Below are positions 13,938-33,531 of a stretch of DNA of 64,000 bases, piece after piece. Numbering within the stretch: position 1 is the stretch's first letter; every line of letters starts with the position of its first letter. The stretch lies in NCBI GenBank assembly GCA_002841435.1, contig PGZS01000001.1:5328-69327 (forward strand), given 5' to 3'. Made by a program: the position numbers and the translations under genes. The notes beneath the pieces are model-generated. The model made no database searches, was not told the origin of the DNA, and saw nothing but the letters and a program-made list of their open reading frames with translations. The stretch is from Firmicutes bacterium HGW-Firmicutes-3 (GTDB taxonomy: Bacteria; Bacillota; Clostridia; Lachnospirales; Vallitaleaceae).

Positions 13938-14637
13938 ATGATGACACTGTTACATTTATTAATTAGTTTTGGCGGCGGCGTATTTGCTGCTACCATAGGG
14001 GCTTTGTGCCGCTAATAAGAAAAAGCTTATGGGCGATGGCAATGGTACTGACATCGTAACACCTCTGTTTGGCTTAGGAGATCCAACGGTGTTGATAGTA
14101 GGCGGAATTTTTGGTACTTTGGGCTATACAATCAATTACTTACTTTCTTCTGTATTAGCACTTCAAACAGACACCATAGCACTCACCGTTATCATCTCAG
14201 GACTAATTGTCAGACTTATTTTTGGCAAGACAGGTCTTATCGGCGCTTTCGACGGCTCCAAAGGTGAAGCTAGACGTTACTTTCCAAGTGGTAAATTCTT
14301 TCTTTTCATGCTGATTCTGGCAGCCGGTCTTGGGTTAGTTGTCTCTAACATGGCCATTGCTTTGAATATTGCAGCTATTGGTTTTACCATCAGTGCCGCC
14401 TCACTGATTTTTGCAGAAATGGGTTTGCCTGTTCCCGGAACACATCACATCACCTTAATTGCAGGTCTAGCTGCTGTTTCATCCGGTGATCCATACATCG
14501 GTATGGCTTTTGGTATCTTGTCTATGATTGTTGGAGAAGTTTTTGCTCTCATCTTCAACAGCCACAATGATACCCACATTGACCCACCAGCCGGAGCGAT
14601 ATTCATTTGCACCTTTATCGTCCTCGCTATTTTCTAG
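13938..14637 (+). pseudogene. Multi-pass membrane protein, apparently internally deleted and frameshifted
   Basis: AAAGGAG RBS and ATG at 13938 give MMTLLHLLISFGGGVFAATIGALCR*. The rest (ANKKKLMGDGNGTDIVTPL...GTHHIT...THIDPPA) continues in another frame without its own RBS. Confidence 0.65.
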
Positions 14638-16717: not shown

Positions 16718-17257
16718 CTAATTTTGGGTTCCTGAAAAGAAATCCTTTGGAAGAATATTACCCATTAAATCATAATAGGTACGCTGAATTCTCTTCAAAT
16801 ACATCTTGCCACCAGTAACTTCTAAGGTAGCAATTACCATACGTCCAGAAAGCGTGTTCGAAAAGTCTTGGCGATATTTACAAGGTTCTATTCTTACTGA
16901 TGTAGCAGGGTCTTCAAATACAAAAATATTCATATCTTTCCCAACCGGAATAACAATTTTACAATAAACAAAATACTCCTTCGGTTTTAGAATAAGACCC
17001 AAACTTTTTATAGATAAAAACATCATAATATAGGTTAATGCTTCTTGAGCAAAACGATTCATAACATCCGCTCTTGAGAAAATACTATCTTTAAATGGTT
17101 CCTGGTCCATTCTAGGATAAGCAGAATACAGATTTGCTTTCTTTTTATATAAACCCGTTTCTAGAAAAGAATTTCGTGACTTGATAGACTCAAGAGAACC
17201 TAAAAGCTTATGTTTTGATGCATCAAGCTTACTATACTTTTTAGCGAGGGTATACAT
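16718..17257 (-). CDS. Hypothetical protein (179 aa), possibly frameshifted from an upstream TM-anchor segment
   Basis: Long ORF in AT-rich DNA. An upstream ATG near 17325 encodes a hydrophobic stretch (MVEVSAVIFIILINLLVG) in another frame. Confidence 0.5.
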   Translation of the reverse strand: MYTLAKKYSKLDASKHKLLGSLESIKSRNSFLETGLYKKKANLYSAYPRMDQEPFKDSIFSRADVMNRFAQEALTYIMMFLSIKSLGLILKPKEYFVYCKIVIPVGKDMNIFVFEDPATSVRIEPCKYRQDFSNTLSGRMVIATLEVTGGKMYLKRIQRTYYDLMGNILPKDFFSGTQN

Positions 17258-17615: not shown

Positions 17616-18485
17616 TTGGTTGAAGAACAGGTAACATTTAATGCTTTTTCAAGACAAAACATAAAAGATTTTATCAGTTGGTTAATAGAAAAGAAGTATG
17701 CTCCAAAAATCATTAACTTAAAGCTTACAGCTATAAGATCATTCTTAAAATACTGTAGCGAAGAAGACTTTGAATTAAGAGGAATCTATACAGAAGTATG
17801 CACAGTTAAAAAGCAAAAGGAAGAAAAACGTCCCATTGAGTATCTTCAGCCAAATGTTACGGCTGCTATTCTTTCAGCTTATGATACATACACCTCTAAG
17901 CATAGACGAAATAGGATGATGTTAATAATGCTTTATGATACTAGATCTCGGGTGCAGGAACTTGCTGATTTAAATCTTAGTTCACTTCATTTAGATACAA
18001 CTAATCCATTTGTAACTTTGATTGGCAAAGGCAAGAAAAGTAGAAATGTTCCTTTATTAAAAAAGACGGTTCAACATTTAGAAGAGTATCTTAAAAAATA
18101 TCATCCTATTGGAGAGGAAAACCCTTTGTTTTATAGCTTCCGCGATAGAAACCCTCATAGATTATCGACTGACAGTATCAGTTTAGTACTTAAAACAGCT
18201 GCTAAAAAAGCTAAAGAATCTTGTGCTGATGTTCCGAAAAGAGTTCATTGTCATATGATTAGAAAAACCAAGGCTATGGATTTATACAAGAATGGTGTGC
18301 CATTACCATTTATCATGCAATTACTTGGTCATGAAAGTATGTCTACGACATCTGGATTTTATGCATTTGCAACACTAGAAATGACGAGCGAAGCAATGAA
18401 TAAGGCAGCACCATCAACAAATTTATCTTTAGAAAAGATTTGGAAAAAAGAAGAAATCAAAAAGATTCTTTATTCCCTAGACTAG
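17616..18485 (+). pseudogene. Tyrosine recombinase, N-terminally truncated; resembles the third recombinase of a RIT element
   Basis: R (SRVQE), GKGKK, HxxR (HMIR), LGH and Y (GFYA) catalytic motifs. TTG start without an RBS; no partner recombinases upstream. Confidence 0.75.
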
Positions 18486-18492
18486 GCAAAAC

Positions 18493-18581
18493 ACTATGCC
18501 GAAGGATCTGAACTAAAACAAGTATTTAAGGAGCTAAATACAAACTTCGGCATAGTATTTTCTTCGGTATAGTCACTATGC
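18493..18581. repeat. RIT-type recombinase binding repeats / element end
   Basis: ACTATGCCGAAG (18493-18504), inverted copies CTTCGGCATAGT (18545-18556) and CTTCGGTATAGT (18562-18573), then ACTATGC. Confidence 0.7.
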
Positions 18582-18762
18582 AAAATTATTTCACCATTAC
18601 TAGGTTCATTTACGAATGAATATGCTTGTCGAATCGTTTCAATAACTATTGGCGTTTAGAATGTGTAGCATAAGCATAATCGAGTATTGCACCATCAAAA
18701 AGGTCCTTTAGTGCTGATAAATATATCGTCCCGTTTAAACCGCTCATCTGGGTAATATCAAT
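18572..18762 (-). pseudogene. IS3-family (IS150-like) transposase core fragment
   Basis: Minus strand reads IDITQMSGLNGTIYLSALKDLFDGAILDY..., then after one frameshift ...EPSNGEIILHSD; this spans the first two catalytic Asp motifs. Confidence 0.7.
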
Positions 18763-18784
18763 GTTATTCTGACATCGGGATAAC

Positions 18785-19329
18785 ATTGATATCACCTATA
18801 TTCGACTTAAGCAGGGGTTCATTTACCTGACAGCTATCATCGATTGGTATAGTCGCTGCATTGCAGCCTGGGATCTGGATGATACACTTGATACTACTTC
18901 AGCATTCAGCACTGAATGCTGTTAAAAAGGCCTTTAAAATAGCAAAACCAGAAATCATAAATTCTGATAAAGCTGACTGTTTACGAGTAAAAAACACACG
19001 GACTACCTCAAAGAACACAAGGTCAAAATCAGTATGGATGGTAAGAATCGATGGGCTGATAATATCATGATTGAAAGTTGATTTCGTACACTAAAGTATG
19101 AGGAAGTCTATTTGAATGACTATGCAAACATCCGTGATGCTAGGACGCGAATCTGAAAAATTATCACCACTTACAACTGGACGAGACATCATTCATAAAT
19201 TGTTTATAAGACTCCTGCAAGTCTTTACTATAGAACTTATGCTAAAGTAGCATAACTACTATGAAACAGGTATCGAATTAGATTCATTAAGAATTTATGT
19301 TTTCGTGTCTTGACTATTAGACCACTATT
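18785..19329 (+). pseudogene. Second IS3-family transposase remnant with its right end
   Basis: IDITYIRLKQGFIYLTAIIDWYSR...PEIINSD...SMDGKNRWADNIMIE...TLKYEEVYL, with frameshifts and stops. Ends in an IS3-like terminus GTGTCTTGACTATTAGACCACTA. Confidence 0.8.
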
Positions 19330-19437
19330 TAATTCAATATATTTAAATATTTCCTTGCGAGCTTGTCCCCTTCTATATATCATGAAGAATACCTTTTCTC
19401 AATAATATAGAATTCTATTCAACTAATTTTTTTTACT

Positions 19438-20307
19438 TTAAGCTCTTAAAGCAAGTTCTAATGAACCCACCAGACCTGCATCCTGACCGTTTTTCGGGTA
19501 TCTAATATATGTATCTAGATTTTCAAGAGCCTGATGCATAACATATCCATTCATATAACGTTTAAAAGCCTCCCTGATTTTTGGAAACATATGCTCCTGT
19601 TGAGAAACTCCACCACCAATCAGAATTATTTCTGGAGATAAAATCAAATTATAAGATACAAGTGCTTGCCCAATATAGTCAGCATTTAGTTCCCAAACTG
19701 AGTTATTCTCCGAAATGAGGGGACCCCTCTTGCCAATTCTTGCTTCGATAGCAGGTCCTGAAACAAGACCCTCGAAGCAGTTTCCGTGAGTCGGACAGAT
19801 ACCTTTGAAGGTATCATCTTTCTTCTGTTTTATAGTGATATGACCCATTTCAGGATGGGTCAAACCATATAGAGTCTCACCTTCTATGACAAAGCCAGCA
19901 CCGATGCCAGTACCAATTGTTATGTATAGAACACTTCGTTTACCTATGCCATATCCATGCCTATATTCGCCAAGAGCAGCTGCATTGACATCTGTGTCTA
20001 TTTTTACCGGTATTTCAAGCGCCTCATAAAAAGTTTTATAAAGATTGATACCACGCCATTTTATCTTCGGTGTATTTTGAATCATACCGTAATCAGGACT
20101 TTCGGGATGGATATCTATCGGACCGAATGTACCAATACCTAGCTTTTGAATCTTATACTTTTTGAAAAAGGCAATAGATTCCTCCAATGTCCTTTCCGGT
20201 TCCAATGTTGGTGTAGTCATCTTATCAATAATATTTAGATTTTCATCCGCTACTGCACAAACGAACTTAGTTCCTCCCGCTTCAATAGCACCTAGCAATT
20301 TTTTCAT
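19438..20307 (-). CDS. ROK-family fructokinase (ScrK/YdhR type)
   Basis: GAIEAGGTKFVCA, GTFGPID, DTDVNAAALGE, TIGTGIG and HPEMGH...CPTHGNCFEG, characteristic of Firmicute fructokinases. Confidence 0.88.
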   Translation of the reverse strand: MKKLLGAIEAGGTKFVCAVADENLNIIDKMTTPTLEPERTLEESIAFFKKYKIQKLGIGTFGPIDIHPESPDYGMIQNTPKIKWRGINLYKTFYEALEIPVKIDTDVNAAALGEYRHGYGIGKRSVLYITIGTGIGAGFVIEGETLYGLTHPEMGHITIKQKKDDTFKGICPTHGNCFEGLVSGPAIEARIGKRGPLISENNSVWELNADYIGQALVSYNLILSPEIILIGGGVSQQEHMFPKIREAFKRYMNGYVMHQALENLDTYIRYPKNGQDAGLVGSLELALRA

Positions 20308-20344
20308 ATTCGTGGTTCTCCAAACAAAGTATTTATATATATTA

Positions 20345-21211
20345 TCATGCTAATATATATCGGCTGAATTCAAGAGCTTGACGCGCTCTATCATCAAGCG
20401 CTTGCTCCGATGCTCCGTCACTTAAATCACGCCATACTTTAATGTCAGTTCCAACTTTTCCACCCATTTTTTCAAATGGTTCCATTACAACAGCATTGTC
20501 ATATCCAATATCATTAAGTGCTTCGTGAATTTCAGCCCAGGGTAAATGTCCTTTTCCAGGTACTTTTCGGTTTGACTCACCGATATGCATATGACCTAGA
20601 TATTTTCCAGCTGTTCTTATAGCTCCGCCAATTGAATCTTCTTCTATATTCATGTGGAATGTGTCTAATAGCACTTTAACATTAGGTGCATCTACTTCTT
20701 GAACAAACTTTACTCCTTCTTCCGCAGTATTCAATAAATATGTCTCAAACCTATTCATAACTTCTATACAAAGAGTTATGCCCTTCTCTTCTGCAATTTT
20801 AGCAATTTCTCTTATCCCTTCGACCCCTCTATTCCAATCCCCAGTCTTATCGACATCAACATCATAGTTTACTGGCCAATAGGTATTTAATGCTCCCCCA
20901 ATAAGATGCACATCCATCTTTTCAAGTTTATCAAACAACGTTTCATAGAATTCTATACCTTTTTTCCTAATACTAACATCTGTAGAAGACAGATTATGTT
21001 CTTTACTTGGGCCATGCCCAACGGTAAGTGTAATGCCATTTTCCCGAGCACAATTTTTAATCTCTTCTATTTGATCATCACTATAATCAACAATGGGTGT
21101 CGCTGCTATTTCGAGTATATCGTATCCAAGTTTTGCAACTTTCTTAATATAATATTTATAATCAGCTTGCCATTCTTTTTCCCAATAAGCATAATATATA
21201 CCAAATTTCAT
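20345..21211 (-). CDS. dpe: D-psicose (D-allulose)/D-tagatose 3-epimerase
   Basis: N-terminus MKFGIYYAYWEKEWQADYKYYI is typical of clostridial DPEases. Metal/catalytic residues are in EVMNRFE, LDTFHMNIEE, HIGESNRKVPG and VMEPF. Confidence 0.9.
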   Translation of the reverse strand: MKFGIYYAYWEKEWQADYKYYIKKVAKLGYDILEIAATPIVDYSDDQIEEIKNCARENGITLTVGHGPSKEHNLSSTDVSIRKKGIEFYETLFDKLEKMDVHLIGGALNTYWPVNYDVDVDKTGDWNRGVEGIREIAKIAEEKGITLCIEVMNRFETYLLNTAEEGVKFVQEVDAPNVKVLLDTFHMNIEEDSIGGAIRTAGKYLGHMHIGESNRKVPGKGHLPWAEIHEALNDIGYDNAVVMEPFEKMGGKVGTDIKVWRDLSDGASEQALDDRARQALEFSRYILA

Positions 21212-21261
21212 TATCTACACTCCTATTCATTCATTAAATATATGTATTTTTAATAATTCGT

Positions 21262-22305
21262 TTATTGATTTCTTGCATTTTCACGTAAGTATTTGTTTCT
21301 CAAATTAGTTGCAAATCGTCGATAAATTATAATTAGTACAAGCAATACGCCCCACATAGTTAATGCAACAAACTGACTTATACCTAGTGCATTTATTCCG
21401 CTATTCAGTATTTGAAGGGTAAACAAAGCTAATATTACACCTCCAACTCTAACATAACCACCTTCAGGATTTGTTCCTCCAAGTACCGCTATAAGAACAC
21501 TCAACAATACGTAGCTCGTTCCAAAACGTGCATTTGCAGAGTTTATTCTGGAAATCATAATAACAGAAGCGATTCCTGACATCAGACCACTAAGCATATA
21601 TGTATATAGAATTGTTTTCTTAACATTTATACCAGAGTATTCTACTGCCTCAGCATTTGAACCAATCATAACTTGATATTTGCCAACAGGTGTTCGCTGT
21701 ATAATAATCAATATTATTACAACAAATATAGCAAAAATAATGAATGGTAAAGGAATACCTAAGATAGAACCATTACCAATTTTCAAAAACATATTCGGCA
21801 ACCCAGATATTCCTTTTCCTTTTGTTATGGAAAGGGAAAATCCTTCATATAAAATCATTGTACTTAACGTTGCCAAAACCGGACTTATTTTAATGTAGCC
21901 GACAAGAATACCATTTAGTAAACCTAATATCATAGCAATGACCAATCCGACAACGATTGCAATGACAACGATAAAAAATGTATATCCAGAGGTTGAGTTT
22001 TCTGCTACAGCTTTTGTCATAATCAAAGCCATAATAACACCAGAAAAGTTTGCTGTGCTAATTACTGAAAGATCAATACCACCAGTCATCATCGCGAGCA
22101 TCATTGCCATAGAAAACAATCCAAGCTCTGGTATTTGAAATGCCATTGATCGTATGTTTGTAAATGAAAGAAATTCAAAAGAAGTTGCTACTGACATGAA
22201 GGATAGGATGACAACAAGCAATATTGGTAATAGAATTTGATCCAAATTCATCCCGGCGGTTCTTTTTAATTTATCATAATTGATTTTATGCTTCTTCAAA
22301 GTCAA
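21262..22305 (-). CDS. Monosaccharide ABC transporter permease (CUT2/RbsC family)
   Basis: TGGIDLS, GSNxEA..YSGINV and AVLGG motifs; multi-pass TM. Confidence 0.9.
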   Translation of the reverse strand: MTLKKHKINYDKLKRTAGMNLDQILLPILLVVILSFMSVATSFEFLSFTNIRSMAFQIPELGLFSMAMMLAMMTGGIDLSVISTANFSGVIMALIMTKAVAENSTSGYTFFIVVIAIVVGLVIAMILGLLNGILVGYIKISPVLATLSTMILYEGFSLSITKGKGISGLPNMFLKIGNGSILGIPLPFIIFAIFVVIILIIIQRTPVGKYQVMIGSNAEAVEYSGINVKKTILYTYMLSGLMSGIASVIMISRINSANARFGTSYVLLSVLIAVLGGTNPEGGYVRVGGVILALFTLQILNSGINALGISQFVALTMWGVLLVLIIIYRRFATNLRNKYLRENARNQ

Positions 22306-23302
22306 CGCCCCCCGCTTTCTTTTTGTCTAACCTGGTTCTAGTCGCAGTAGTTGCTACACTGGCTACCATTATCAAACCGATAAAAATTTGATGCCAGAAT
22401 GTAGGAACTGCCATTACTGTCAGGCCATTTTTAAGAATAGCTACAAACAGTACACCTAAAACAGTTCCTCTTATGGATCCTGCTCCTCCAGATATACTTG
22501 CTCCACCTAGTACAACCGCGGTCAGTACATCAAATTCCTTACCTATCAATGCGTTAGGTGCTGCTGTCTGTGTGAGCATAGCATGTATGATTGCTGCAAC
22601 CCCTGCTACAAGACCTAGAAATGCATGAACAAAAATGCGAGTACGGTTTACATTGATACCTTGTCTATCAGCTGCTATCGTGTTACCACCAACTGCATAG
22701 ATTTTCCTACCAAGCATTGTATAACGAAGAATTACAAATCCAATTATACATACTAGAATCCATATAACGGTTACGGATGAAAGTCCGATGGTAACCCCAT
22801 CATCGTTGAGAACTTTCAGTACTAATTTTCTTGGAAAACTTGTAAACCATTTTGGGAAACCATACAATTGATTTCCTCCTGAAATAAACTGAATTCCACC
22901 ATAGTATGCATTCAAGGTTGCTATCGTAATAATTATTGCTGGTACTTTAAGCCAATTTATTAAAACGCCATTCAATGCTCCTAATAATCCTCCTACCACG
23001 ATTGGTCCTAGTAAGATAACGGCAATAGGGATATTCTTGTCAGACAACAAAAGGGATGCCATGAGGAACTGGACAACTGTTGCTGTTGCTGTAAATGAGA
23101 TGTCTATACCGTTAGTGATTAGTACAAATAGAAAACCTATTGAACATATCCCAATAAAAGTTGCCCCTCTTAGAATATCAAAGGTGTTCTCAAGTGAAAA
23201 AAAGCTAGGACTAATCAATGACATAACTAAAATCATTAGTATAATTATTATTGTTAGTATGTTTTCATTCTTTTTAAATATCTTCAGAGCAGAAAAATTC
23301 AT
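22286..23302 (-). CDS. Monosaccharide ABC transporter permease (CUT2/RbsC family)
   Basis: GIDISF, YAVGGN and AVVLGGASISGGAG motifs. Confidence 0.9.
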   Translation of the reverse strand: MNFSALKIFKKNENILTIIIILMILVMSLISPSFFSLENTFDILRGATFIGICSIGFLFVLITNGIDISFTATATVVQFLMASLLLSDKNIPIAVILLGPIVVGGLLGALNGVLINWLKVPAIIITIATLNAYYGGIQFISGGNQLYGFPKWFTSFPRKLVLKVLNDDGVTIGLSSVTVIWILVCIIGFVILRYTMLGRKIYAVGGNTIAADRQGINVNRTRIFVHAFLGLVAGVAAIIHAMLTQTAAPNALIGKEFDVLTAVVLGGASISGGAGSIRGTVLGVLFVAILKNGLTVMAVPTFWHQIFIGLIMVASVATTATRTRLDKKKAGGVDFEEA

Positions 23303-23330
23303 GGTATTACTTCCTTTTCATTTAAAGTCA

Positions 23331-24827
23331 TTAAGAGAGATTGTATTTTTCTAGAAGTTCGTCTTCTGTCAGTTCATCAGGTTTAAACTCACATAGAATT
23401 TTACCATCTCTCATAATTAAAATTCTATGGCAATTAGTCTGAACTTCTTGAATTTCGGAAGATATCATGATTATTGACATCCCCAAGTTTGCAAGCACCT
23501 TAATTAAAGTATGTATACTGTTTTTAGCAATTACATCAATACCTATTGTAGGTTCATCGAGTATTAAGATTTTCGGATTAACTTTCAGCCATTTAGCAAG
23601 GACTATTTTTTGCTGATTACCTCCTGACAAAGTCTTAACTGCAGCTTCAGGAAGTGACATTCTTATTTTTAATTCCTCTTTCATTTCATTTAACATTTCA
23701 AGTCTCTTGCCATCTTCAAGCAAACCAGCTTTATTGACATAAGATAACAAGGTTGTGATAGTGATATTATCAATTATTGGTTGATCCATAATCAGTCCAT
23801 GATTCATTCTATCCTCTGGAACGTAACCAATTCCTGCGCTAATGGCCTCTCTATTTGAACGCCACTTGACTTCTTGTTTTTCAAAGATTATCTCGCCCGA
23901 ATCTGGAGGATTCATTCCAAACAATGAAAGTGCAAGTTCCGTTCTTCCTGATCCAAGTAAACCTGTTATGCCTAAAATTTCACCCTTTTTCAATTCAAAT
24001 GAAATGTCTTTATAATTTCTGGCTTTAGTTAGGTTCTTAACATTTAAGATTACATCTGCATCATCTTCCAATGGTTTAGGGTGATTTTTATCTTCTCTTG
24101 TATTTGTCATAAAGTATACCAATTTATCATGATCAAGTTCTTTTGGTGAATAGACTCCAATTTTCAGCCCATCCCTTAAGATGGTAACTTGTTCAGCAAC
24201 TTCAAACACCTCATTTAGTTTATGACTTACAAAAAGTATAGAAATACCTTTTTCTTTTAAACGACTTATTACTCTAAAAAGAGAATTAACTTCACGTTTT
24301 GTCAAAGATGCAGTTGGTTCATCAAGGATTAATAATTTCAACTCCACAGTCAATGCTTTGGCAATTTCTACAAGTTGTTGCTGTGCGATTGACAACTCTT
24401 CAACTTTTTTATGTAGTTGGATATTAACTCCAATCTCGTCTAATGCTTTCCGTGCAATCTTGTCCATATTTTTCCAGTTAACAAATTTAGAATGTTTTTC
24501 TCTGTTGCTTCCAAATGCAATATTTTCAGCTACAGTGAGATTTGGAAATAATGAAAGATCTTGATATATTACCTGGATTCCTTTTTCCATGCTGATTTTT
24601 GAGTTTAAATGATTGCACAACTCCCCATCAATAATTATCTTTGAATCTGGTTCAGGTTTCTCGACTCCTGATAATATTTTTATTAGCGTTGACTTTCCAC
24701 TACCATTCTGACCAACCAGACAATGAGCCTCACCGCGCCTGATTATAAAATCTACACCATTAAGGGCTTGTATGCCCGGATAAAGCTTGTTAATGTTTTT
24801 CATTTCAATGATATTTTTTGTAGGCAT
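23331..24827 (-). CDS. Sugar ABC transporter ATP-binding protein (two fused ABC domains, RbsA type)
   Basis: GQNGSGKST, LILDEPT and LSGGNQQK motifs. Start re-placed to 24827 (GGAGAGG RBS). Confidence 0.92.
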   Translation of the reverse strand: MPTKNIIEMKNINKLYPGIQALNGVDFIIRRGEAHCLVGQNGSGKSTLIKILSGVEKPEPDSKIIIDGELCNHLNSKISMEKGIQVIYQDLSLFPNLTVAENIAFGSNREKHSKFVNWKNMDKIARKALDEIGVNIQLHKKVEELSIAQQQLVEIAKALTVELKLLILDEPTASLTKREVNSLFRVISRLKEKGISILFVSHKLNEVFEVAEQVTILRDGLKIGVYSPKELDHDKLVYFMTNTREDKNHPKPLEDDADVILNVKNLTKARNYKDISFELKKGEILGITGLLGSGRTELALSLFGMNPPDSGEIIFEKQEVKWRSNREAISAGIGYVPEDRMNHGLIMDQPIIDNITITTLLSYVNKAGLLEDGKRLEMLNEMKEELKIRMSLPEAAVKTLSGGNQQKIVLAKWLKVNPKILILDEPTIGIDVIAKNSIHTLIKVLANLGMSIIMISSEIQEVQTNCHRILIMRDGKILCEFKPDELTEDELLEKYNLS

Positions 24828-24867
24828 ACAAACCTCTCCATTCATTTATTCTTATGTGGTTACATTC

Positions 24868-25932
24868 TTAGAATCCAAAAGAATCAATATTCTCAAGTGT
24901 TACTTCAGAGTCTGCGTGAAATGTGATAACTTTTCCATCAGCTACCGTTTCACCGTATATCGGTACTTCTGTTATACTTGAAATATCCATACCATTTTCA
25001 CTTAGAGTTTTTACAACATAGCTTGTAACATAACCAATATTGTAGGGGCTACCAATAATTGCGCTTGTAATACTTCCATCTTCAATAAAAGGTTTTGCTT
25101 GACTAGGAACCGCTGTTCCTACAACTACAAATTTGCCAATAAGATTTTTCTCTTGAATAGCTGTAGCTGCGCCTATCGGTCCATTTGTACCAATATAGAT
25201 CATACCACCTAGATCTTCATGTGCTTTGATCAGCTCTAGTGTTGTATCATGAGCTTGGCTTACATCTTCCGATCCTTCAACTCTACTTGTTACTTCATAC
25301 ATATCAGGATAATTTTCTTTTTGATATGCTATTGCTGCATCTGCACGAGCATTGTGATTTTCAACTGTCAATCCACCAACCATAATTGCATAGCCGCCCT
25401 TTTCTCCCATACCTTTTGCCAAAGCATCCATGTATTGTTGACCAACTCTGTCAATAAATAAGAATTCGATATCAGCATCTGCATTTTCTATTGAAGACGC
25501 TTCTTGTGATATAACCAATATACCGGCTGCTCTTGCTTTTTCAAGAACTGGTTCAAGCACTTGTGTGTCATTTGGTACTACAACAATAACATCAGGTTTT
25601 CTTGCAATGACGTCTTCTAATGCTTTTACTTGCTGTAAAGGATCGGCTTCAGCTGGTCCACTTACTGATATGTTTAACCCACCAAACTCTTTAGCATAAT
25701 CCTTCATTCCTTTTTCCATCGCATTAAACCAAGGAATACCTGTAATTTTTGGCACAAACACAACTTCAAGAATTTTTTCTTCCGTTATTTTAGATGTTGA
25801 TTCTTCCGTCTTCGTCGCTGTTTCTTCGTTACTTTCTGATTTGGATGTACATCCGGATAACCCTAAAATCAATCCTGTAACTAATGTAAAAACAAACCCC
25901 ATAAATACTAATTTCTTCACTACATTTACCAT
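24868..25932 (-). CDS. Sugar ABC substrate-binding lipoprotein (LsrB/RhaS-like class)
   Basis: Lipobox LSGC, VPKITGIPWF and GPAEADPLQQ motifs; periplasmic-binding-protein type I character. Confidence 0.88.
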   Translation of the reverse strand: MVNVVKKLVFMGFVFTLVTGLILGLSGCTSKSESNEETATKTEESTSKITEEKILEVVFVPKITGIPWFNAMEKGMKDYAKEFGGLNISVSGPAEADPLQQVKALEDVIARKPDVIVVVPNDTQVLEPVLEKARAAGILVISQEASSIENADADIEFLFIDRVGQQYMDALAKGMGEKGGYAIMVGGLTVENHNARADAAIAYQKENYPDMYEVTSRVEGSEDVSQAHDTTLELIKAHEDLGGMIYIGTNGPIGAATAIQEKNLIGKFVVVGTAVPSQAKPFIEDGSITSAIIGSPYNIGYVTSYVVKTLSENGMDISSITEVPIYGETVADGKVITFHADSEVTLENIDSFGF

Positions 25933-26119
25933 TTTACTCCTCCTATTAAATTTATTTTGTAATTGTTATCAACTTAATAATAGCACTCACCGCATCTTTT
26001 GTCAATGTCTTTTACTAAAGATACGGCAATATGTTTTTAACATATTTGTTACTTAACCAACTATTATTAAAGAAAGTTAGTGTATAATTATTATAGGTAA
26101 AAGAAAAGCTTAAATATGA

Positions 26120-26825
26120 AAATATACTACAGATGAAATTGAACTACGAATACTGAATGGTAATGAAGGCAGTTAGATAAAAGATCCATATGAGGCAGAT
26201 ACAATATTTCAAGTAGATCGTTTTCATATACATCAAGATATTAAACATAAAATCAAAGATAAGCAAGCACAAAAGCAGACTACAGAATTGTTTGAGTCAG
26301 AAAAGCCAGAGGAAATGTTTGAGTATATACAGATGTATGCAGATAGCGTTGCAAGTAATTAAGAAAACGATAAACGAAATGAAAATGCAATGAGGCTATA
26401 TCAATATTCAGATAATAACAGAGAAGGATTATCCCATATCAGAGCAGAGTTAGAAATCTTCCAGAACCTAAAGAAGGGCTTGTATGTAAAAATATGGGAG
26501 TTCAAGAAAATCAGAACTGTACTACAATTACCATGAGAATGAAAGGTAGACGGACGAGAGGATCTGAATCAAGTGCAAATAATATGGCGAAATTATTGTA
26601 TAGCAAAGAAAATAAGCAGTTAGCTGAAACGATTGAAAGATATACAGACGGGTTAATATTTGCAATAAAAATGGAAGAAGTATTAACGATTTTAAGTGCT
26701 GCAAAGGCACCTAAAAAAGATGGTAAAGGTAATCCTCATATGTAGATGTTATTAATCATCACGTGCCATTAAGAGATACAATGCAGACAGCTTCAAGAAA
26801 AATATTCAAGAGAGTATTTTCATAA
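26120..26825 (+). pseudogene. ISLre2-family (UPF0236) transposase remnant
   Basis: Broken frames RILNGNEGS*IKDP...FQVDRFHI and MGVQENQNCTTITMRMKGR...ANNMAK. Confidence 0.65.
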
Positions 26826-26975
26826 GAAGAAATATGTTGCTAAGGCTTATTTAAAGACCATAAAAAAATAATGATTTATAAGAGCTAAAAAGTCACAAAA
26901 TCTAATATTAATTTTTTGAAATAAAATAGACTGGAACCTTTGCCTATGTGCCTATAAATAGTTGATATTAAATAT

Positions 26976-27005
26976 TTGATAAAACATAATAAGCTATGTT
27001 ATAAT
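26976..27005 (+). promoter_or_regulatory. Candidate sigma-A promoter facing the ROK regulator, now separated from it by IS30
   Basis: TTGATA-18 nt-TATAAT with an extended -10 TG. Confidence 0.4.
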
Positions 27006-27153
27006 ATGTTTAACAAAAGATGTACTCTTAAGTTTTGTCGGATTTTCATATTTATGTATTCAAATCAATTTTACCTTTTTTAACAATATTTATAAGTATA
27101 TTAATCTAAATACCTTATCGTTAAGTTTTAATGGATTTATAATTTAAATAAGG

Positions 27154-28692
27154 TGAATTGAAATCCGAGATACCAGTTTATAAAATCAACTTCCAGTTCA
27201 GCATTTCCCTTGCAAGACTAAATTCTTATAAACTAAGTTACTACTAAAATACTGGAAGTAAGTATTGCAAATAGTTCTATAGCTGTAACTTACCATACCA
27301 AACAGATTGTTTTATGGTCCAATAGCTATTATGCTTTTTTTGAGGTTAATACCACTGAAAAAAAAGTGCACTCTAACCGGAAATCGAATTTAGCTTCCCT
27401 TTTCGCAAGATTAATTTTCACCCCTATACAGTTCGATATCGATTCCGAATGGCGTTTACTATTTTACTTTTTTAGCAACAGAGGTGTTAGATTAATCTCA
27501 TTAGCGGGAATGAGCTTAATAATAAGCTTATCAAGAATTTCCACGCTATTTAGGAAGCTGAACATCTGGTGTGCGGACTGGTTATTCAGCTTTCTTCTGG
27601 TATATGAATTGATATGACTCATCATCAGGGAAGTATCATTCTGATTCAGTTCATCAAAGGATATTCCTTTTGGTAACACACGTCGCATCATTTCATGCGT
27701 CACCTCACACCCACCTTTTTGATCAGAGCGTTGTGGATTGCATTAAAACATACGGGTTCTGCGCTCATTATCCTTGTTAAACTCTATAACAAGAGGATTT
27801 GTAAATTTATTCCTTCTGTCTGCGAGGATGACTTGGAATAAATCAGTAAATGTATCATGACCTAAAAGTTCGTACATCCAATCAAATATTTCTGTTACTG
27901 TTCTGGACGTATTTGTGTCTCGGATAAAATGCTAACATAAGACTGCTGCCTCTAAAGTAGATAGTGAGAAGTACATTTTCACCTTTGCATTCTTCTATAG
28001 AATTCATTTCTACGATAGGGATATAAGGATTTACAGCAATGTAGGACTCGAACTCTTCATGGGTTCGCTCTATATGACATTGATTATCTACTATTACAGG
28101 TTTTTTGCGTGAGCGGGTACGGTATCTAAACTTCCTGGGAAGATCGATGTTGTCAACGGATAAAAGACCTGCATCAATGAATTATTGATAGTCTTTTCAT
28201 CCAACATGATATTGTTAGAATTATTGACACAAATTATGTGTATCGATTGTCCTTGCTTAACCAATGGTGAGTTGATTCCATCGATACGTTTTAGTTCCGC
28301 CGGGGTAATAGCTATTCCTTGGTGGCTCTCAGGACGAATGGACTCGGATTTCTTTTGTGCATTATTAGCATTATAAAGATGACGTTCCAGCTTGCAGCGC
28401 ATGCGGGAATCACAGCTGTTACAGACATAAGGTGGTTTATCCAGTTCTTTTCAAATCTCAGCAAATGAGTCTCCTTCTCTATAGGAGACTTCAATATGGA
28501 CTCTTTCATCAAGAGTCAGATGTGCGTTTTTCGCCATGGTAATTTCTCCTTGGATTTATGCCATCCGGACTCTGTTTCTAAGCCATTAGTATATCAGACC
28601 AGAGCATTTGCAACAGAAAATTCTGGTAGTAACTTTTCAATAATAAGTTCCAGTTTTTGGCTGAATGAATTGGAATTTAACTTTTCAATTCA
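27154..28692 (-). mobile_element. Degraded IS30-family element
   Basis: Terminal IR TGAATTGAAA / TTTCAATTCA. Fragmented transposase runs from ATG 28537 (MAKNAHLTLDER) to 27464 (RRVLPKGISFD...HINSYTR), with stops, frameshifts and a deletion. Confidence 0.75.
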
Positions 28693-28717
28693 GCATAATT
28701 TACATAAAGGAAATAAT

Positions 28718-29917
28718 ATGAAAAAAAATACAACAGCTTTAGTACGGAAAGCGAACAAAGCATTAGTACTTACCACAATTAAAGATAATGAGCCTATAAC
28801 ACTTGAAGATGTTCTAAAAATCACAAATTTAAGTCGTCCCACTGCCCATACTATTATTAAAGAACTTATGGATGATAAATTAGTTTACAAACATGGTTAC
28901 GCTGAATCATCTGGTGGTAGAATGCCAATCCTCTACTGTTTTAATGCAACAGCTCACTATGCAATAGGTGTTGATTTCGAGTTTCCCCCTGTTAGACTTA
29001 TTATTTCCGATTTAAAAGGAAAACTTATACATTCAAAAGGATGGGTCTTTAGTAGAAACGTTTCAAAAGAGAAAGTTATAGATGATTTGTTACATGGCAT
29101 TGAAGAAATAATTATTGATTCAGGTATTTCAAAAGAAAAATTCATAGGTATCGGCGTCGGGTTACCTGGTATTATCGATTATGAAAAAGGTTTATCAAAA
29201 AATATCGAAAGAATAGCCAACTGGCATAATGTGAATATCAAAGAAATTCTACAAAAAAGATTAGAACTACCTGTATATATTAGAAATGATGTACACTTAT
29301 TAGGATTGATAGAAAAGGAATTATACCAAGGTGTTAACATGTCAAACTTTATATATATAGGTATAAGAGCCGGAACTGGTATGGCTATATTCATCAATGA
29401 TACTTTTTTTAAAGGAATGATGGGTAACGCAGGATTTCTTGGTCATACTATCGTTGAATCTGAAGGTCCTAATTGCACATGTGGAAATAAAGGCTGTTTA
29501 GAAACATATACTAGTGAGCTTGCAATAGTACGTAGATATTTAGAAGCTGCAAATCTTGGATTTTCTGAAGAAAATGATAATTTATCAGTGTCGGATATAA
29601 TCGAAAAAGCTAATGAAAACGATCCGCTTGCAATTGAAATTTTAGAGAGTTCAGGACAATATCTAGGAATAGCAATTTCAAATTTAATCAAAATTCTCGA
29701 AATTCCTACTGTCATAATAGGTGGCCTTGTTGATACAAAAAAACAAATTTTTCTTAACAGTGTTATTCAAGAAGCTAATAAAAATTTACTAAACTATTCT
29801 ATTGATACTCCATTCATTATAAAAGGTTCACTTACTCATGAAAGTTTTGCTTTAGGAGGATGCTTATTGGTCATAGATAATTTCAATAAAGCACCTTTCC
29901 TTCGTGTACATATATAG
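28718..29917 (+). CDS. ROK-family transcriptional repressor (XylR/NagC type)
   Basis: N-terminal wHTH (TNLSRPTA...SSGGR), YIRNDV and GFLGH...GPNCTCGNKGCLE. True start is ATG 28718 (AAAGGA RBS); the track's extension to 28496 lies inside IS30. Confidence 0.9.
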   Translation: MKKNTTALVRKANKALVLTTIKDNEPITLEDVLKITNLSRPTAHTIIKELMDDKLVYKHGYAESSGGRMPILYCFNATAHYAIGVDFEFPPVRLIISDLKGKLIHSKGWVFSRNVSKEKVIDDLLHGIEEIIIDSGISKEKFIGIGVGLPGIIDYEKGLSKNIERIANWHNVNIKEILQKRLELPVYIRNDVHLLGLIEKELYQGVNMSNFIYIGIRAGTGMAIFINDTFFKGMMGNAGFLGHTIVESEGPNCTCGNKGCLETYTSELAIVRRYLEAANLGFSEENDNLSVSDIIEKANENDPLAIEILESSGQYLGIAISNLIKILEIPTVIIGGLVDTKKQIFLNSVIQEANKNLLNYSIDTPFIIKGSLTHESFALGGCLLVIDNFNKAPFLRVHI

Positions 29918-30005
29918 AATCATTGTTTATGTTATAGATAAATAATGACACAGTTATTTACACTCGTTACTTAATGAAAAACTGTTTATTAAAGGAGTAG
30001 CTTAT

Positions 30006-31811
30006 ATGGAATATCTACATTTACAAAAAGGACTTCGACTTAGAGGCAATTTACCTAAAATTGGGATTAGAATAATTGTTGACGGAAGAAGAGATGGTAT
30101 TAGGGAAATGCTTGAAGAGCCAATCTTGATTCAGGCTAAGAAAGTTAAGTTACTGCTTGAAAACAACTTGTTTTACCCAAGTGGAGATAAGGTGCAGGTT
30201 ATACTTTCAGAAACTAGCATAGGTGGCGTCAGCGAAGCGGCAAAGGTGCAAGCACAATTTAACAAAGAGGGTGTTGGCGCAATACTTGATATAACTCGAG
30301 ATTGGGCATATCCATCGGAAGTTATCGATTTGGACCCTGTAATTCCCAAAGCAATCTGGGGATTCAATGGTAGTGAACGGCCCGGTTCAGTCTATCTAGC
30401 ATGTGCCACTGCAACGAGTGAACAAAAGGGATTGCCTGTATTTAAAATTTTTGGGCGCGATGTTCAAGATGCTGATGACTATTCAATTCCAAATGATGTA
30501 GCAGAACAAATTTTACTATTTTGTAAAGCCGCTCTAGCCATAAACATCATGAGAAACAAATCATATCTCTCTATAGGATCTGTTAGTATGGGTATTGGGG
30601 GATCTATCCTAATTCCCGATTTATTTCAAACATATTTTGGTATGAGAAATGAATTTGTAGATATGACTGAAATCATCCGTCGAATAGACAAGGAAATATA
30701 TGACGTTAATGAATTTCATGAAGCTCAAAAATGGGTACAAGAAAATTGTATTGAATATGAAGACACTAATCCTTCTATGATTCAAGAATCAAAAGAAAAA
30801 AAAGCTTCTAACTGGGAAATTGTAATCAAGATGTACCTTATCGCTAGAGACTTAATGATCGGCAATGAAAAATTAAGTGATATTGGTTATAAAGAAGAAA
30901 GCGAAGGACATAATGCTATTCTTGCAGGATTTCAAGGTCAACGGAGTTGGACAGATCACTTTCCTAACGGCGACTTCATGGAAGCGATGCTAAACTCATC
31001 ATTTGACTGGAACGGTATCAGACAGCCTTATTTAATGGCAACAGAAAATGACAGTCTTAATGGATTGTCAATGTTAATGGGACATCTTTTAACAGGTACA
31101 TCACAAATTTTTGCTGATGTACGAACCTACTGGAGTCCTTATGCAATAATGCGAGTCACAAATATGTCCTCGTTGCCAGAGGAAATTTTAAATGGTTTTA
31201 TTTATCTTTCTAATTCAGGTGCTGCTGCTTTAGATGGTACAGGAGAGTCAAGTAAAGATAATAAATCTGCTATATTACCACATTGGGAGATGACAACTAA
31301 TGATGTCAAAAAATGTATCAACGCAACTTCCTGGGGGCCTGCGAAACTATCAGCTTTTAGAGGTGGTGGCTTTTCATCTAACTATACGACAAAAGGTGAT
31401 ATGCCCATGACAATTGTTAAATTAAATTTCATTAAAAATCAAGGTCCAGTACTTCAATTAGCAGAAGGTTTTTCAATTGATCTTCCTACTGATATTAGAG
31501 ACATTATTGTTTCACGTACAGATGAGACTTGGCCCAAGACTTTTTTTGTTCCAAAATTGACAGGAACTGGTGTATTTAAAGATGTTTATTCAGTTATGAA
31601 TAAATGGGCTTCTAATCACTGCTCCATTTCATATGGACACATAGGTCATGAGTTAATAACATTAGCTTCAATGCTTAGAATACCCGTTATGATGCATAAT
31701 GTTGAAGAAGAAAGAATATTTAGACCTAGTATATGGAGCACTATGGGTACCGAATCACTTGAGTCTGCAGATTATAGGGCATGCAATTTACTTGGTTCCT
31801 TATATAAATGA
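30006..31811 (+). CDS. fucI: L-fucose/D-arabinose isomerase family protein (divergent)
   Basis: DGRR, WGFNGSERPG, SMGIGGS, GFQGQR, ATENDSLN (metal Glu), FADVRTYWSP (metal Asp) and WASNH (metal His); 601 aa. Confidence 0.9.
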   Translation: MEYLHLQKGLRLRGNLPKIGIRIIVDGRRDGIREMLEEPILIQAKKVKLLLENNLFYPSGDKVQVILSETSIGGVSEAAKVQAQFNKEGVGAILDITRDWAYPSEVIDLDPVIPKAIWGFNGSERPGSVYLACATATSEQKGLPVFKIFGRDVQDADDYSIPNDVAEQILLFCKAALAINIMRNKSYLSIGSVSMGIGGSILIPDLFQTYFGMRNEFVDMTEIIRRIDKEIYDVNEFHEAQKWVQENCIEYEDTNPSMIQESKEKKASNWEIVIKMYLIARDLMIGNEKLSDIGYKEESEGHNAILAGFQGQRSWTDHFPNGDFMEAMLNSSFDWNGIRQPYLMATENDSLNGLSMLMGHLLTGTSQIFADVRTYWSPYAIMRVTNMSSLPEEILNGFIYLSNSGAAALDGTGESSKDNKSAILPHWEMTTNDVKKCINATSWGPAKLSAFRGGGFSSNYTTKGDMPMTIVKLNFIKNQGPVLQLAEGFSIDLPTDIRDIIVSRTDETWPKTFFVPKLTGTGVFKDVYSVMNKWASNHCSISYGHIGHELITLASMLRIPVMMHNVEEERIFRPSIWSTMGTESLESADYRACNLLGSLYK

Positions 31812-31829
31812 TGAAAATAAATGACATTG

Positions 31830-31838
31830 CCCAAACCT
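31830..31838 (+). repeat. Right target-site duplication CCCAAACCT
   Basis: Directly follows the cryptic IS end TAAATGACATTG (31818-31829). Confidence 0.85.
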
Positions 31839-31884
31839 TTTCTTTTTTTGTGTTTTTATTTCTATTTTAATCTGTTGAAGTCCA

Positions 31885-33531
31885 TTATTTTAATACTTTC
31901 GCTACCCGATTACGTCCTTCAGCTTTTGCCTTATACAGTGCTTTATCAACCCTTGATATAACCGTAGCAGGATCTTCATCTTCTTGCCATATGGCTACAC
32001 CGAAGCTACATGTTAGGCCATCAATTTTATCGAAATTATATGCTTCTATTTTTTTTCTTAGTTTTTCCGCTAAAACACAAGTACCTTCAACATCCGTCTT
32101 TGGCGCAATGATTATAAATTCTTCTCCACCCCACCTACCTAAGATATCGATTTCTCTTACATTTTTCTCCATCAATCTCGACAAGTCATAAAGGGTTTTG
32201 TCACCAATTTGATGTCCAAAGTTATCATTTACATGCTTGAAATGGTCGATGTCAAGTAGTATAACACCAAAGGGCCACTGTGTTCTTTGCGCCCTCTCAA
32301 GTTCCATTTCTAATACTTCATCAATTTTCAGACGGTTGTAGAGTTGGGTTAACTTATCCGTAACCGATAATCTTCTTATTTCTTCTTCCATTTCTTTTCT
32401 CTCTGTATAATCCTCAACGATACCAATACCACCCGTCATGAGTCCCGAGTCATCAAATACCGGCGCAAAAGTAGCACGCACATACACTTCCTTACCTGTT
32501 ATGTTTGATTTATATAAGTCTTCATAAAAAACCGTATTTCCTGTTAAGGATTTTTTAATTACTTGTGCTAGGTTTTCGTCAGGAAGTAACAGCATATTAA
32601 GATTTAGCAACTGTTCTCTTGTCGCACCAATTAAATTACAAAAATATTGATTAATGTTAAGAATCATCCCTTCAGGATTATATTGTATGATTCCGATAGG
32701 TGAGTTTTCAAATATAAGTTCTAACTGCATTTCTCTGTCTTTAATCGATCTTTCATAAGCTTTAAGTAAGGTAATATCCCGAATAACATGAACCACCATT
32801 GTAACATCTTCAACCATATATAGCCTTGCCGAAACTAACCCAATCCGAATTCTATCCGTTTTTGTTTTGAATTTCACTTCGATGTTTTCACAATAGCCTT
32901 GCTCATGCAGCATATGCTTTATGATATCTCTTTTTTCAGGATCATTGGTGTAAATATGAATACTTTCTTCGTTTAATGCTTCTATATCTTCTTCCGAGTA
33001 TCCACTGTTGCTTAAATATGCATTATTATAATCCAGTATCCGAAAATCATCCAATGTTGATATCACCGTAGGTTCTGGTATCATATGAAAAATTGTTTTA
33101 AAGTGGCGTTTCAACTCTTGTTCCATAAGCCTAGCACGTTCTAGGGCTTCCATATCCTCAAAGAGTCTTTCTTTCATCAGTAAAAAAGCACTTGAAAACT
33201 CTCCAAAATAATCCGTATCTTGGGAAAAATCACCTTCCGAAAGTGCCTCCATCTGTGTATTCAAGTATTTTAATTTTGTCTGAAGCTTCGTGATGGCATC
33301 AAAAATTGGCCCTATACCAACAATTTCAAAAGATATATTTCCGTCACTCATCTTTCTCATTATCTCCCTGATTTTCCACATGTCAAGGATCATGCTTTCC
33401 AAACTCTCAAACACAAGTGCCCGCCCATCCAATTCCGACAAAATAGGATCATCCTGTTCGTCTTGGTAGAGTATTAAAGAGATTAAACGTCTAAATTTAT
33501 CAAAGTCTATTTTTTCTTTCATTTCTATCAC
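31885..33531 (-). CDS. PAS-PAS-GGDEF diguanylate cyclase
   Basis: Two PAS-like regions (FHMIPEP..., FENSPIG...), TDKLTQLYNR, NDNFGHQIGD and RWGGEEF. Confidence 0.92.
   Translation of the reverse strand: MIEMKEKIDFDKFRRLISLILYQDEQDDPILSELDGRALVFESLESMILDMWKIREIMRKMSDGNISFEIVGIGPIFDAITKLQTKLKYLNTQMEALSEGDFSQDTDYFGEFSSAFLLMKERLFEDMEALERARLMEQELKRHFKTIFHMIPEPTVISTLDDFRILDYNNAYLSNSGYSEEDIEALNEESIHIYTNDPEKRDIIKHMLHEQGYCENIEVKFKTKTDRIRIGLVSARLYMVEDVTMVVHVIRDITLLKAYERSIKDREMQLELIFENSPIGIIQYNPEGMILNINQYFCNLIGATREQLLNLNMLLLPDENLAQVIKKSLTGNTVFYEDLYKSNITGKEVYVRATFAPVFDDSGLMTGGIGIVEDYTERKEMEEEIRRLSVTDKLTQLYNRLKIDEVLEMELERAQRTQWPFGVILLDIDHFKHVNDNFGHQIGDKTLYDLSRLMEKNVREIDILGRWGGEEFIIIAPKTDVEGTCVLAEKLRKKIEAYNFDKIDGLTCSFGVAIWQEDEDPATVISRVDKALYKAKAEGRNRVAKVLK

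Follow-up and report, generated by a model that had tools for sequence, protein, structure and literature searches.

A psi-type allulose operon beside a divergent L-fucose isomerase-fold gene in a groundwater Firmicute: a tentative two-part route for D-altro sugars

RESULTS

Genes at the locus

We analyzed a stretch of 64,000 nucleotides (the window; positions 5,328 to 69,327 of contig PGZS01000001.1, assembly GCA_002841435.1) from the groundwater bacterium Firmicutes bacterium HGW-Firmicutes-3, and within it a sugar locus made of two halves. On the minus strand lies an operon of six genes, with intergenic gaps of −20 to 50 bp, encoding an ATP-binding cassette (ABC) transporter, a D-psicose (D-allulose) 3-epimerase (DPEase), and a ROK kinase; the transporter consists of a substrate-binding protein (SBP; 24868 to 25932), a monosaccharide-type ATPase (23331 to 24845), and permeases 1 (22286 to 23302) and 2 (21262 to 22305), and the DPEase (20345 to 21211) and kinase (19438 to 20307) genes follow. 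On the plus strand are the genes for a ROK-family repressor of 399 amino acids (aa) (PF00480 plus a helix-turn-helix; probable start at 28718, end at 29917) and, starting 88 bp past it, an enzyme of the L-fucose isomerase (FucI) fold (30006 to 31811). All eight predicted genes are real, with intact frames. An earlier note on this DNA had listed the same genes on the same strands and had stated that the cluster holds no fucK, fucA, fucU, ribulokinase, or xylulokinase gene, and both statements proved correct. What its picture overlooked was a 2.8-kb spacer between the halves, made up mostly of insertion sequence (IS) remnants, and a remodeled pocket in the isomerase.

The source genome is 86% complete, with 4.9% contamination. 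Its sole FGGY kinase scored 260 against a XylB cutoff of 380 and 114 against the cutoff of 428 for the ribulokinase family NF003154; its one class II aldolase scores as AraD/UlaF, and RbsD/FucU was not found in the assembled 86%. The GC content at third codon positions is 0.19 to 0.30 in both halves versus 0.31 to 0.37 in six flanking genes. Window positions 18500 to 33000 lie on one contig in two sequencing runs, which are possibly the source of this DNA itself. Misassembly between the halves was considered and rejected: there was no joint in four of four runs, the spanning ones of which may be that same source.

The operon resembles psi operons for allulose use

The DPEase matched its family model, NF051856, with 456.8 bits (cutoff, 300) and the solved enzyme 3VNK with an E value of 5e-136. 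It has E150, E156, D183, H186, H209, R215, and E244, which we take to be the catalytic and metal-binding residues; E150, D183, H209, and E244 are identical to those in 3VNK. The kinase is ScrK/YdhR-like. Its score against NF045550 (ScrK), 294 bits, is under the cutoff of 400, but this is still by far its best family; it matched the putative fructokinase of Bacillus subtilis (1XC3) with an E value of 1.7e-88, and the ROK sugar- and zinc-binding motifs of 1XC3 are found at residues 104, 152, and 171. This gene is the second ScrK-like copy in the genome (a 65% paralogue is on contig C128), and each of five congeners has a single copy. Because a second ScrK-like copy occupies the slot after the epimerase, we infer a hexose route, allulose to fructose to fructose-6-phosphate (F6P), in which the kinase is likely a fructokinase.

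A search of plasmid proteins found 13 records with a close DPEase, and three of these loci were opened. In two of them (L141 and L142), the gene order is a divergent lacI-type regulator, then SBP, ATPase, permease, permease, a TIM barrel, a P-loop kinase, and DPEase; in the third (L143), a transporter of another type lies beside the DPEase. The window proteins follow the same order as those of L141 and L142, with identities of 41 to 44% (SBP), 43% (ATPase), 38% and 40 to 42% (permeases 1 and 2, both PF02653), and 61 to 62% (DPEase). PsiO, the published operator of PsiR, was sought in these two loci and is upstream in both at 0 to 1 mismatches, with no such match in 200 shuffles. As judged from gene order and protein similarity, the window transporter and epimerase are orthologous to these PsiO-bearing psi operons. 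The window operon shares with the Rhizobiaceae psi cluster its SBP-ATPase-permease-permease-DPEase series, a divergent regulator, identities of 38 to 62%, and the same six predicted sugar contacts. It differs in that the psi regulator is of the LacI type (PsiR) and the window regulator is a ROK protein, in that a second TIM barrel and a PRK09270 P-loop kinase are absent and a ScrK-like kinase is present, and in that the psi loci have no FucI-fold gene.

The available text of PMC7445875 describes eight-gene clusters regulated by PsiR and predicted for psicose use, with PsiR responding to psicose, and the accessible part of PMC4207669 lists D-psicose as a growth substrate of Sinorhizobium meliloti. 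Because the psi clusters are in print, a physiological setting for DPEases has already been proposed, and the earlier note's suggestion that this locus supplies the first one has to be withdrawn. The FrcK-type P-loop kinase does not figure as a proven fructokinase in what is available of PMC10433430. The conversion of allulose by way of fructose to F6P, which the earlier note had also proposed, is supported by the orthology with psi operons and by the extra ScrK-like copy; we consider it likely and, for the allulose half taken alone, hold it with good confidence.

The best solved relatives of the SBP are 3D02 and 9I1M (E value for 9I1M, 8e-71). AauA of enterohemorrhagic Escherichia coli (EHEC) is reported to bind D-ribulose with a dissociation constant (KD) of 2 µM by way of K37, W43, E118, H167, E196, and S223 (bioRxiv 10.1101/2025.02.06.636802, available part). 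These six contacts align to K62, W68, E144, H193, E222, and T249 of the window SBP, so that all are kept, five of them identical and the sixth changed from Ser to Thr; the same six sugar-contact residues are also in the psi-operon SBPs. Trp170 of AauA is Arg in the window protein. Because D-allulose and D-ribulose are alike at C3 and C4, the cargo of this AauA/psi-type SBP is likely one of these D-ribo-configured ketoses and not an aldose. The D-ribulose ABC systems Aau of EHEC and Rbl of Citrobacter rodentium thus have the SBP family and the ligand contacts in common with the window; in those systems, according to the same partly available report, D-ribulose is the substrate of an FGGY kinase, whereas the window has an epimerase and a ScrK-like kinase and no FGGY ribulokinase.

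The isomerase belongs to an unnamed clade with a remodeled pocket

The isomerase scored 899 bits on NF008220, over the cutoff of 775, and 841 bits on TIGR01089, under the cutoff of 850; automatic annotations give the name L-fucose isomerase. Its AlphaFold model (pLDDT, 84.9) has TM scores of 0.94 to 0.95 to 3A9R, 4C20, and 1FUI. In E. coli numbering, R18, W90, Q302, E337, D361, W499, N527, and H528 are kept, among them the Mn ligands E337, D361, and H528. The substrate-recognition set given in the available text of PMC6894278 is R18, W90, Q302, Y440, W499, and N527; five of the six are kept, and Y440 is replaced by Ala. The other pocket changes are I437 to Lys and T501 to Lys, plus a Lys at position 147. 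Because the C2 to C4 contacts are unchanged, a D-arabino-configured aldose should be recognized. The isomerases of E. coli (1FUI), Aeribacillus pallidus (3A9R), and Raoultella (6K1F) share with this protein the fold, the metal ligands, and R18/W90/Q302/W499/N527; the window enzyme differs from such L-fucose/D-arabinose isomerases in the four pocket positions, in falling in a separate clade, and in having no fucK/fucA/fucU context.

Of the 120 closest homologues, 94 keep the Tyr and carry neither basic residue, and the other 26 lack the Tyr and have Lys447 and Lys or Arg511. Those 26 form one clade with support of 1.0 (FastTree, 80 sequences), so the pocket was remodeled in a single evolutionary event; this clade did not stand apart in a profile search of 50% representatives. 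Lys147, which was outside the pattern used for searching, is present in all 57 clade loci that cover the position. The window isomerase itself sits on a long branch and departs privately from the clade at 12 otherwise conserved positions, with D99, A450, and S314 among the changes. Adaptation to a neutral sugar and relaxed selection would each account for this, and D99 and A450 could mark the shift to a neutral sugar. On sequence grounds, the enzyme is a noncanonical FucI and a member of an unnamed clade; it is likely an isomerase of a D-altro-configured aldose or uronate.

Clade gene neighborhoods point to a sugar acid

The exact clade pattern occurs in at least 26 loci among 185,579 genomes and in at least 39 metagenomic loci. 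After two loci without a usable open reading frame (ORF) were dropped, 63 loci remained, falling into 27 groups at 90% identity. A C3-epimerase-type gene lies within 10 kb of the isomerase gene in 58 loci and 25 groups, which supports the earlier note's logic of coupling an aldose isomerase to a C3-epimerase. The epimerase is FrlC-like in 19 groups and Rpe/AlsE-like in 6, and never both. The FrlC-like barrels keep the Glu-Asp-His-Glu set. In the Rpe/AlsE-like partners (L075:5284-5955 and relatives), the metal ligands are kept and the Ser of the phosphate loop, which binds phosphate in Rpe, is mostly gone; these proteins are candidates for the epimerization of a sugar acid that carries no phosphate. 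For 13 of 25 clade proteins, the longest contig has the same length as that of an FrlC-like homologue, an indirect sign of linkage; none of 94 canonical proteins shows this coincidence.

TRAP (tripartite ATP-independent periplasmic) or GPH transporters are present in 20 of the 27 groups, uxuA, uxuB, uxaC, or kdgK in 13, a protein of 843 aa in 10, and glycoside hydrolase family 31 (GH31) in 4. The clade-linked D-mannonate oxidoreductase scored 410 bits (cutoff, 281) and occurs together with UxuA. Compared with the Protein Data Bank (PDB), the clade TRAP binding protein gave generic acid-binding matches and no specific ligand. The new basic residues near the C5/C6 pocket, taken with the transporters for acids and the enzymes acting on D-mannonate, point to a C6 carboxylate and to D-fructuronate as the end point. 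D-Altruronate is the only such aldose that gives D-fructuronate by isomerization plus C3 epimerization and so is the substrate that we infer for the clade, which would act on D-altro sugars by the route D-altruronate to D-psicuronate to D-fructuronate to D-mannonate to 2-keto-3-deoxygluconate in most hosts. D-Mannuronate was considered as the substrate and set aside: a route from it could do without a C3-epimerase, and the residues that contact C3 and C4 have not changed.

The 843-aa protein (L067:10606-13137, with relatives in 19 loci) is encoded just upstream of the epimerase-isomerase pair. It has no match in Pfam, NCBIfam, or the PDB and appears GH38N/GH57-like by language-model features only; it is a candidate for a new glycosidase family. 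Sulfoquinovose pathways were also considered for the clade; the best solved relatives of the GH31 neighbors are of the alpha-glucosidase type, and, judged by name, none of 34 matches is a sulfoquinovosidase. In L028, L063, L070, and L084, the clade isomerase gene is followed by a split transketolase and the locus has no uxu genes, and a different fate of the keto-acid is possible there. In L040, what looked like a fusion of epimerase and isomerase (866 aa) was rejected, its extra N terminus matching nothing.

Two other substrates for the isomerase can be judged from these data. If it were an ordinary L-fucose isomerase whose fucK and fucA are missing from the assembly, its NF008220 score and the automatic names would be explained; Tyr440 is lost, however, the 63 clade loci contain no FGGY kinase or FucA, fucK, fucA, and fucU were not found in the 86%-complete genome, and the canonical fucI genes of relatives usually adjoin a RhaB/FucK-type kinase gene. 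We regard this explanation as highly improbable. Nearly as improbable is the L-galacto series, in which L-galactose or L-galacturonate would be converted to L-tagatose or L-tagaturonate and then to L-sorbose or 5-keto-D-gluconate. The D-arabino configuration at C2 to C4 is shared by these sugars, and FucI enzymes are described as isomerizing L-galactose (in a source available in part), but the fructokinase-like kinase here and the D-mannonate oxidoreductase and UxuA of the clade all point toward D-fructo products.

The two halves as one system

Within the order, no more than 10 of 401 genomes have a close DPEase. No FrlC-like homologue was found in this genome, and the DPEase, 8.8 kb from the isomerase gene, is the only free-ketose 3-epimerase found in it; the single Rpe-family match is on another contig. 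Because the clade is habitually accompanied by a C3-epimerase, its FrlC-like form was not found here, and DPEases are rare in the order, we favor the view that the halves work as one system. The low third-position GC content of both halves points the same way, as does the ROK gene, which has no rival regulator next to either of them. The best explanation would be a two-part mosaic, a psi-type allulose operon joined by a recruited, divergent D-altro isomerase, and we put it forward tentatively, at a little short of an even chance. The transporter would bring in D-allulose, the DPEase would epimerize it to D-fructose, and the ScrK-like kinase would then make F6P. The isomerase, likely recruited from sugar-acid clusters, would feed a D-altro aldose into the same epimerase, with the DPEase standing in for the usual epimerase of the clade, and D-altrose would pass through D-allulose and D-fructose to F6P as free sugars. 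The ROK protein would control both halves. Neutral D-altrose is a plausible substrate of the isomerase; that altrose entry is physiological is somewhat more doubtful than the mosaic itself.

A number of observations weigh against this reading. The combination of fucI, dpe, and scrK was seen in the window only: it is in none of the 63 clade loci, which contain no DPEase of >26% identity and no ScrK, and neither fucI nor scrK is in any of 14 dpe loci. The neighborhood search proposed in the earlier note thus did not find its trio elsewhere, while it did find the clade paired with other C3-epimerases. Nor do the clade loci contain an SBP of the window type, a window-type ROK repressor, or an FGGY kinase or FucA. 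The earlier note had also named homologous dpe-scrK-ABC clusters without the isomerase as a sign of chance juxtaposition, and this holds in part: a congener (G003) has an orthologous ABC-DPEase operon (56 to 70% identity; 70% for the ATPase, 62% and 57% for permeases 1 and 2) that includes an M24-family gene, is accompanied by a LacI regulator, and ends in a XylB gene (482 bits; cutoff, 380), and fucI is absent from its genome. The ketose-binding type of the SBP, together with the lack of a glycosidase to free altrose inside the cell, makes the entry of altrose hard to explain. Free D-altrose is rare, with one plant source in the accessible Table 1 of PMC11803239, and a canonical FucI turned over altrose poorly according to the available text of PMC6894278. 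All of the basic residues K147, K447, and K511 of the window isomerase are as in acid-linked relatives, its two nearest relatives appear linked (indirectly) to an FrlC-like epimerase, and uxuA and uxaC are elsewhere in the genome. Two IS remnants separate the halves, and more IS and integrase genes surround the cluster. Finally, no shared ROK operator was found, the palindromes upstream of the SBP gene and of fucI (each pairing at 18 of 25 bp) being unlike each other.

Several of these points would be accommodated if the isomerase were still a uronate enzyme, uncoupled from the fructokinase branch. It might have been stranded after the loss of an FrlC-like partner, or the DPEase might convert D-psicuronate to D-fructuronate for uxuB/uxuA encoded elsewhere. 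The kept lysines, the apparent linkage of the nearest relatives, the IS insertions between the halves, and the long branch with its 12 private changes all agree with such an origin, and the genome has uxaC and uxuA, the latter adjoining a fructuronate-reductase-like gene that scored under the cutoff. On the other hand, a member of a rare clade that is nearly always paired with an epimerase here adjoins a C3-epimerase present in so few genomes of its order, the frame and catalytic residues of the isomerase are intact, the cluster has no acid transporter, and D99 and A450 could mark the shift to a neutral sugar. We consider a retained uronate function rather unlikely.

The operon of the congener, which ends in XylB, also bears on a pentose route, in which D-arabinose would be isomerized to D-ribulose (or D-ribulose imported directly), the DPEase would make D-xylulose, and a kinase that was not assembled or not recognized would yield xylulose-5-phosphate. 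The best characterized relative of the SBP binds D-ribulose, FucI enzymes work well on D-arabinose and D-ribulose in the available text of PMC6894278, and the genome is only 86% complete. The kinase slot, however, is taken by a ScrK-like ROK kinase, no XylB above the cutoff is in the genome, basic residues in the C5/C6 pocket are superfluous for a pentose, and an FGGY kinase is in 0 of 63 clade loci. This makes the pentose route improbable. The M24-family (peptidase/amidohydrolase-fold) gene of the congener (L098:10387-11535) lies between the permease and DPEase genes, with xylB after them, and the cargo of that operon may be a sugar-amino acid conjugate.

Other DPEase genes accompany an FGGY kinase, a galactitol-1-phosphate dehydrogenase-like gene, and an aldolase, or else DeoC and an FGGY kinase (L099, L100, and L104 to L106); DPEases serve several ketose routes. 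SBP searches gave five matches, including the window's own, in 399 genomes of the class and two in 401 genomes of another phylum, and the distant SBP relatives are in mixed gene contexts with no fucI. A DPEase (E ≤ 1e-40) is present in 4 of 26 genomes with clade isomerases; two of these loci were inspected, and in neither is it beside fucI.

Having weighed the retained uronate function and the pentose route, we keep the mosaic of an allulose operon and a D-altro isomerase as the preferred reading. The earlier note's view that the whole unit was built for neutral D-altrose survives in part: the altro-to-psico-to-fructo chemistry is supported, but the SBP is of the ketose type, the clade points to a sugar acid, and the trio of genes occurs nowhere else in the loci searched.

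The spacer, promoters, and regulator

Of the 2.8 kb that separate the halves, most is debris of two IS elements with broken transposase genes. One is an ISLre2-family remnant on the plus strand (26177 to 26745), with partial matches to NF033529 (E values of 2e-4 and 5e-4). The other, on the minus strand, is an IS30-family element (27152 to 28694, approximate ends; NF033563, E value of 1.3e-6) with inverted ends that agree at 11 of 12 bp as read by eye, and a second 25-bp inverted pair is at 27247/28658. A sigma70-like promoter of the ABC operon (25977 to 26020, minus strand; 11 of 12 matches, with TG) overlaps a candidate operator, an imperfect 25-bp palindrome; a second sigma70-like site (26976 to 27005, plus strand; 11 of 12 matches, with TG) points toward the ROK gene. 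Promoter-like matches overall were not above chance (22 versus 28.4 in shuffles). The IS30 element now lies between the plus-strand site and the start of the repressor gene. A weak promoter-like site spans the IS30 end immediately ahead of the ROK gene (28670 to 28699) and may be a hybrid promoter.

The ROK repressor is the only regulator that adjoins either half. A genome scan with the palindrome upstream of the SBP gene gave no other site of similar score. Among 301 genomes, the closest relative of the repressor has 38% identity and is encoded by the last gene of an operon (L140:572-10980, genome G019) with two sugar ABC ATPases, RpiB, a ROK kinase, DeoC, and an Rpe/AlsE-like protein. That operon is allose-pathway-like, a weak point in favor of the two halves being one system.

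To the left of the cluster are an IS4 transposase gene (14858 to 16168), a tyrosine recombinase gene (17616 to 18485), and a probable transposase remnant near 18700 to 19250. The ORFs at 14029 to 14637 (202 aa, membrane-like) and 16718 to 17257 (179 aa) have no Pfam match.

DISCUSSION

The psi-type allulose half is of an already known kind, and the steps proposed for the locus are ordinary isomerase, epimerase, and kinase chemistry, not a new kind of system. The als/AlsE route of E. coli, from allulose-6-phosphate to F6P, likewise includes a psico-to-fructo C3 epimerization and ends in F6P, but its intermediates are phosphorylated (bioRxiv 10.1101/2024.11.07.622513, available part), and AlsK, RpiB, and AlsE are absent from the window cluster.

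The unnamed FucI clade, by comparison, likely marks an undescribed D-altruronate pathway, a lead that lies mostly outside the window. The known hexuronate isomerase pathway runs through UxaC, UxuB, UxuA, and KdgK, and IolO is a keto-uronate epimerase. The neighbors of the clade are genes of that pathway, with D-fructuronate as the probable entry point; the difference is that the clade entry would use a FucI-fold isomerase and a dedicated C3-epimerase. We found no described altruronate or FucI-plus-epimerase route in the literature, most subscription papers being outside our coverage. D-Altrosides and D-altruronosides occur naturally, for example in the fungal virescenosides (PMC6891331, in the part available). 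To our knowledge, no abundant source of either has been described. The fullest version of this view is that the clade is a D-altruronate isomerase at the entry of an undescribed D-altro pathway, paired three times with unrelated or distant C3-epimerases (FrlC-like, Rpe/AlsE-like, and, in the window, a true DPEase) and fed by uncharacterized glycosidases of the GH38/GH57-like and GH31 types, with the window version rewired to convert D-altrose to F6P. It is a real possibility, which we hold with reserve.

If that view is true, there would be a new uronate/aldose isomerase specificity in a family whose sole annotation is L-fucose isomerase, together with two candidate keto-uronate 3-epimerases and, in the 843-aa protein, a candidate glycosidase family. 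The window isomerase is also an obvious candidate for the production of D-altrose from allulose, a reaction for which canonical FucI is a poor catalyst. Through its allulose half, a Firmicute would have an equivalent of the rhizobial psi operon, with a fructokinase that can be recognized as such, which helps to settle the natural role of the DPEases used in industry. With this locus and its relatives, the question of whether bacteria feed on D-altrose or D-altruronate in nature becomes testable, and, if the D-altro pathway is real, D-altro glycosides would truly serve as a source of carbon in anaerobic habitats.

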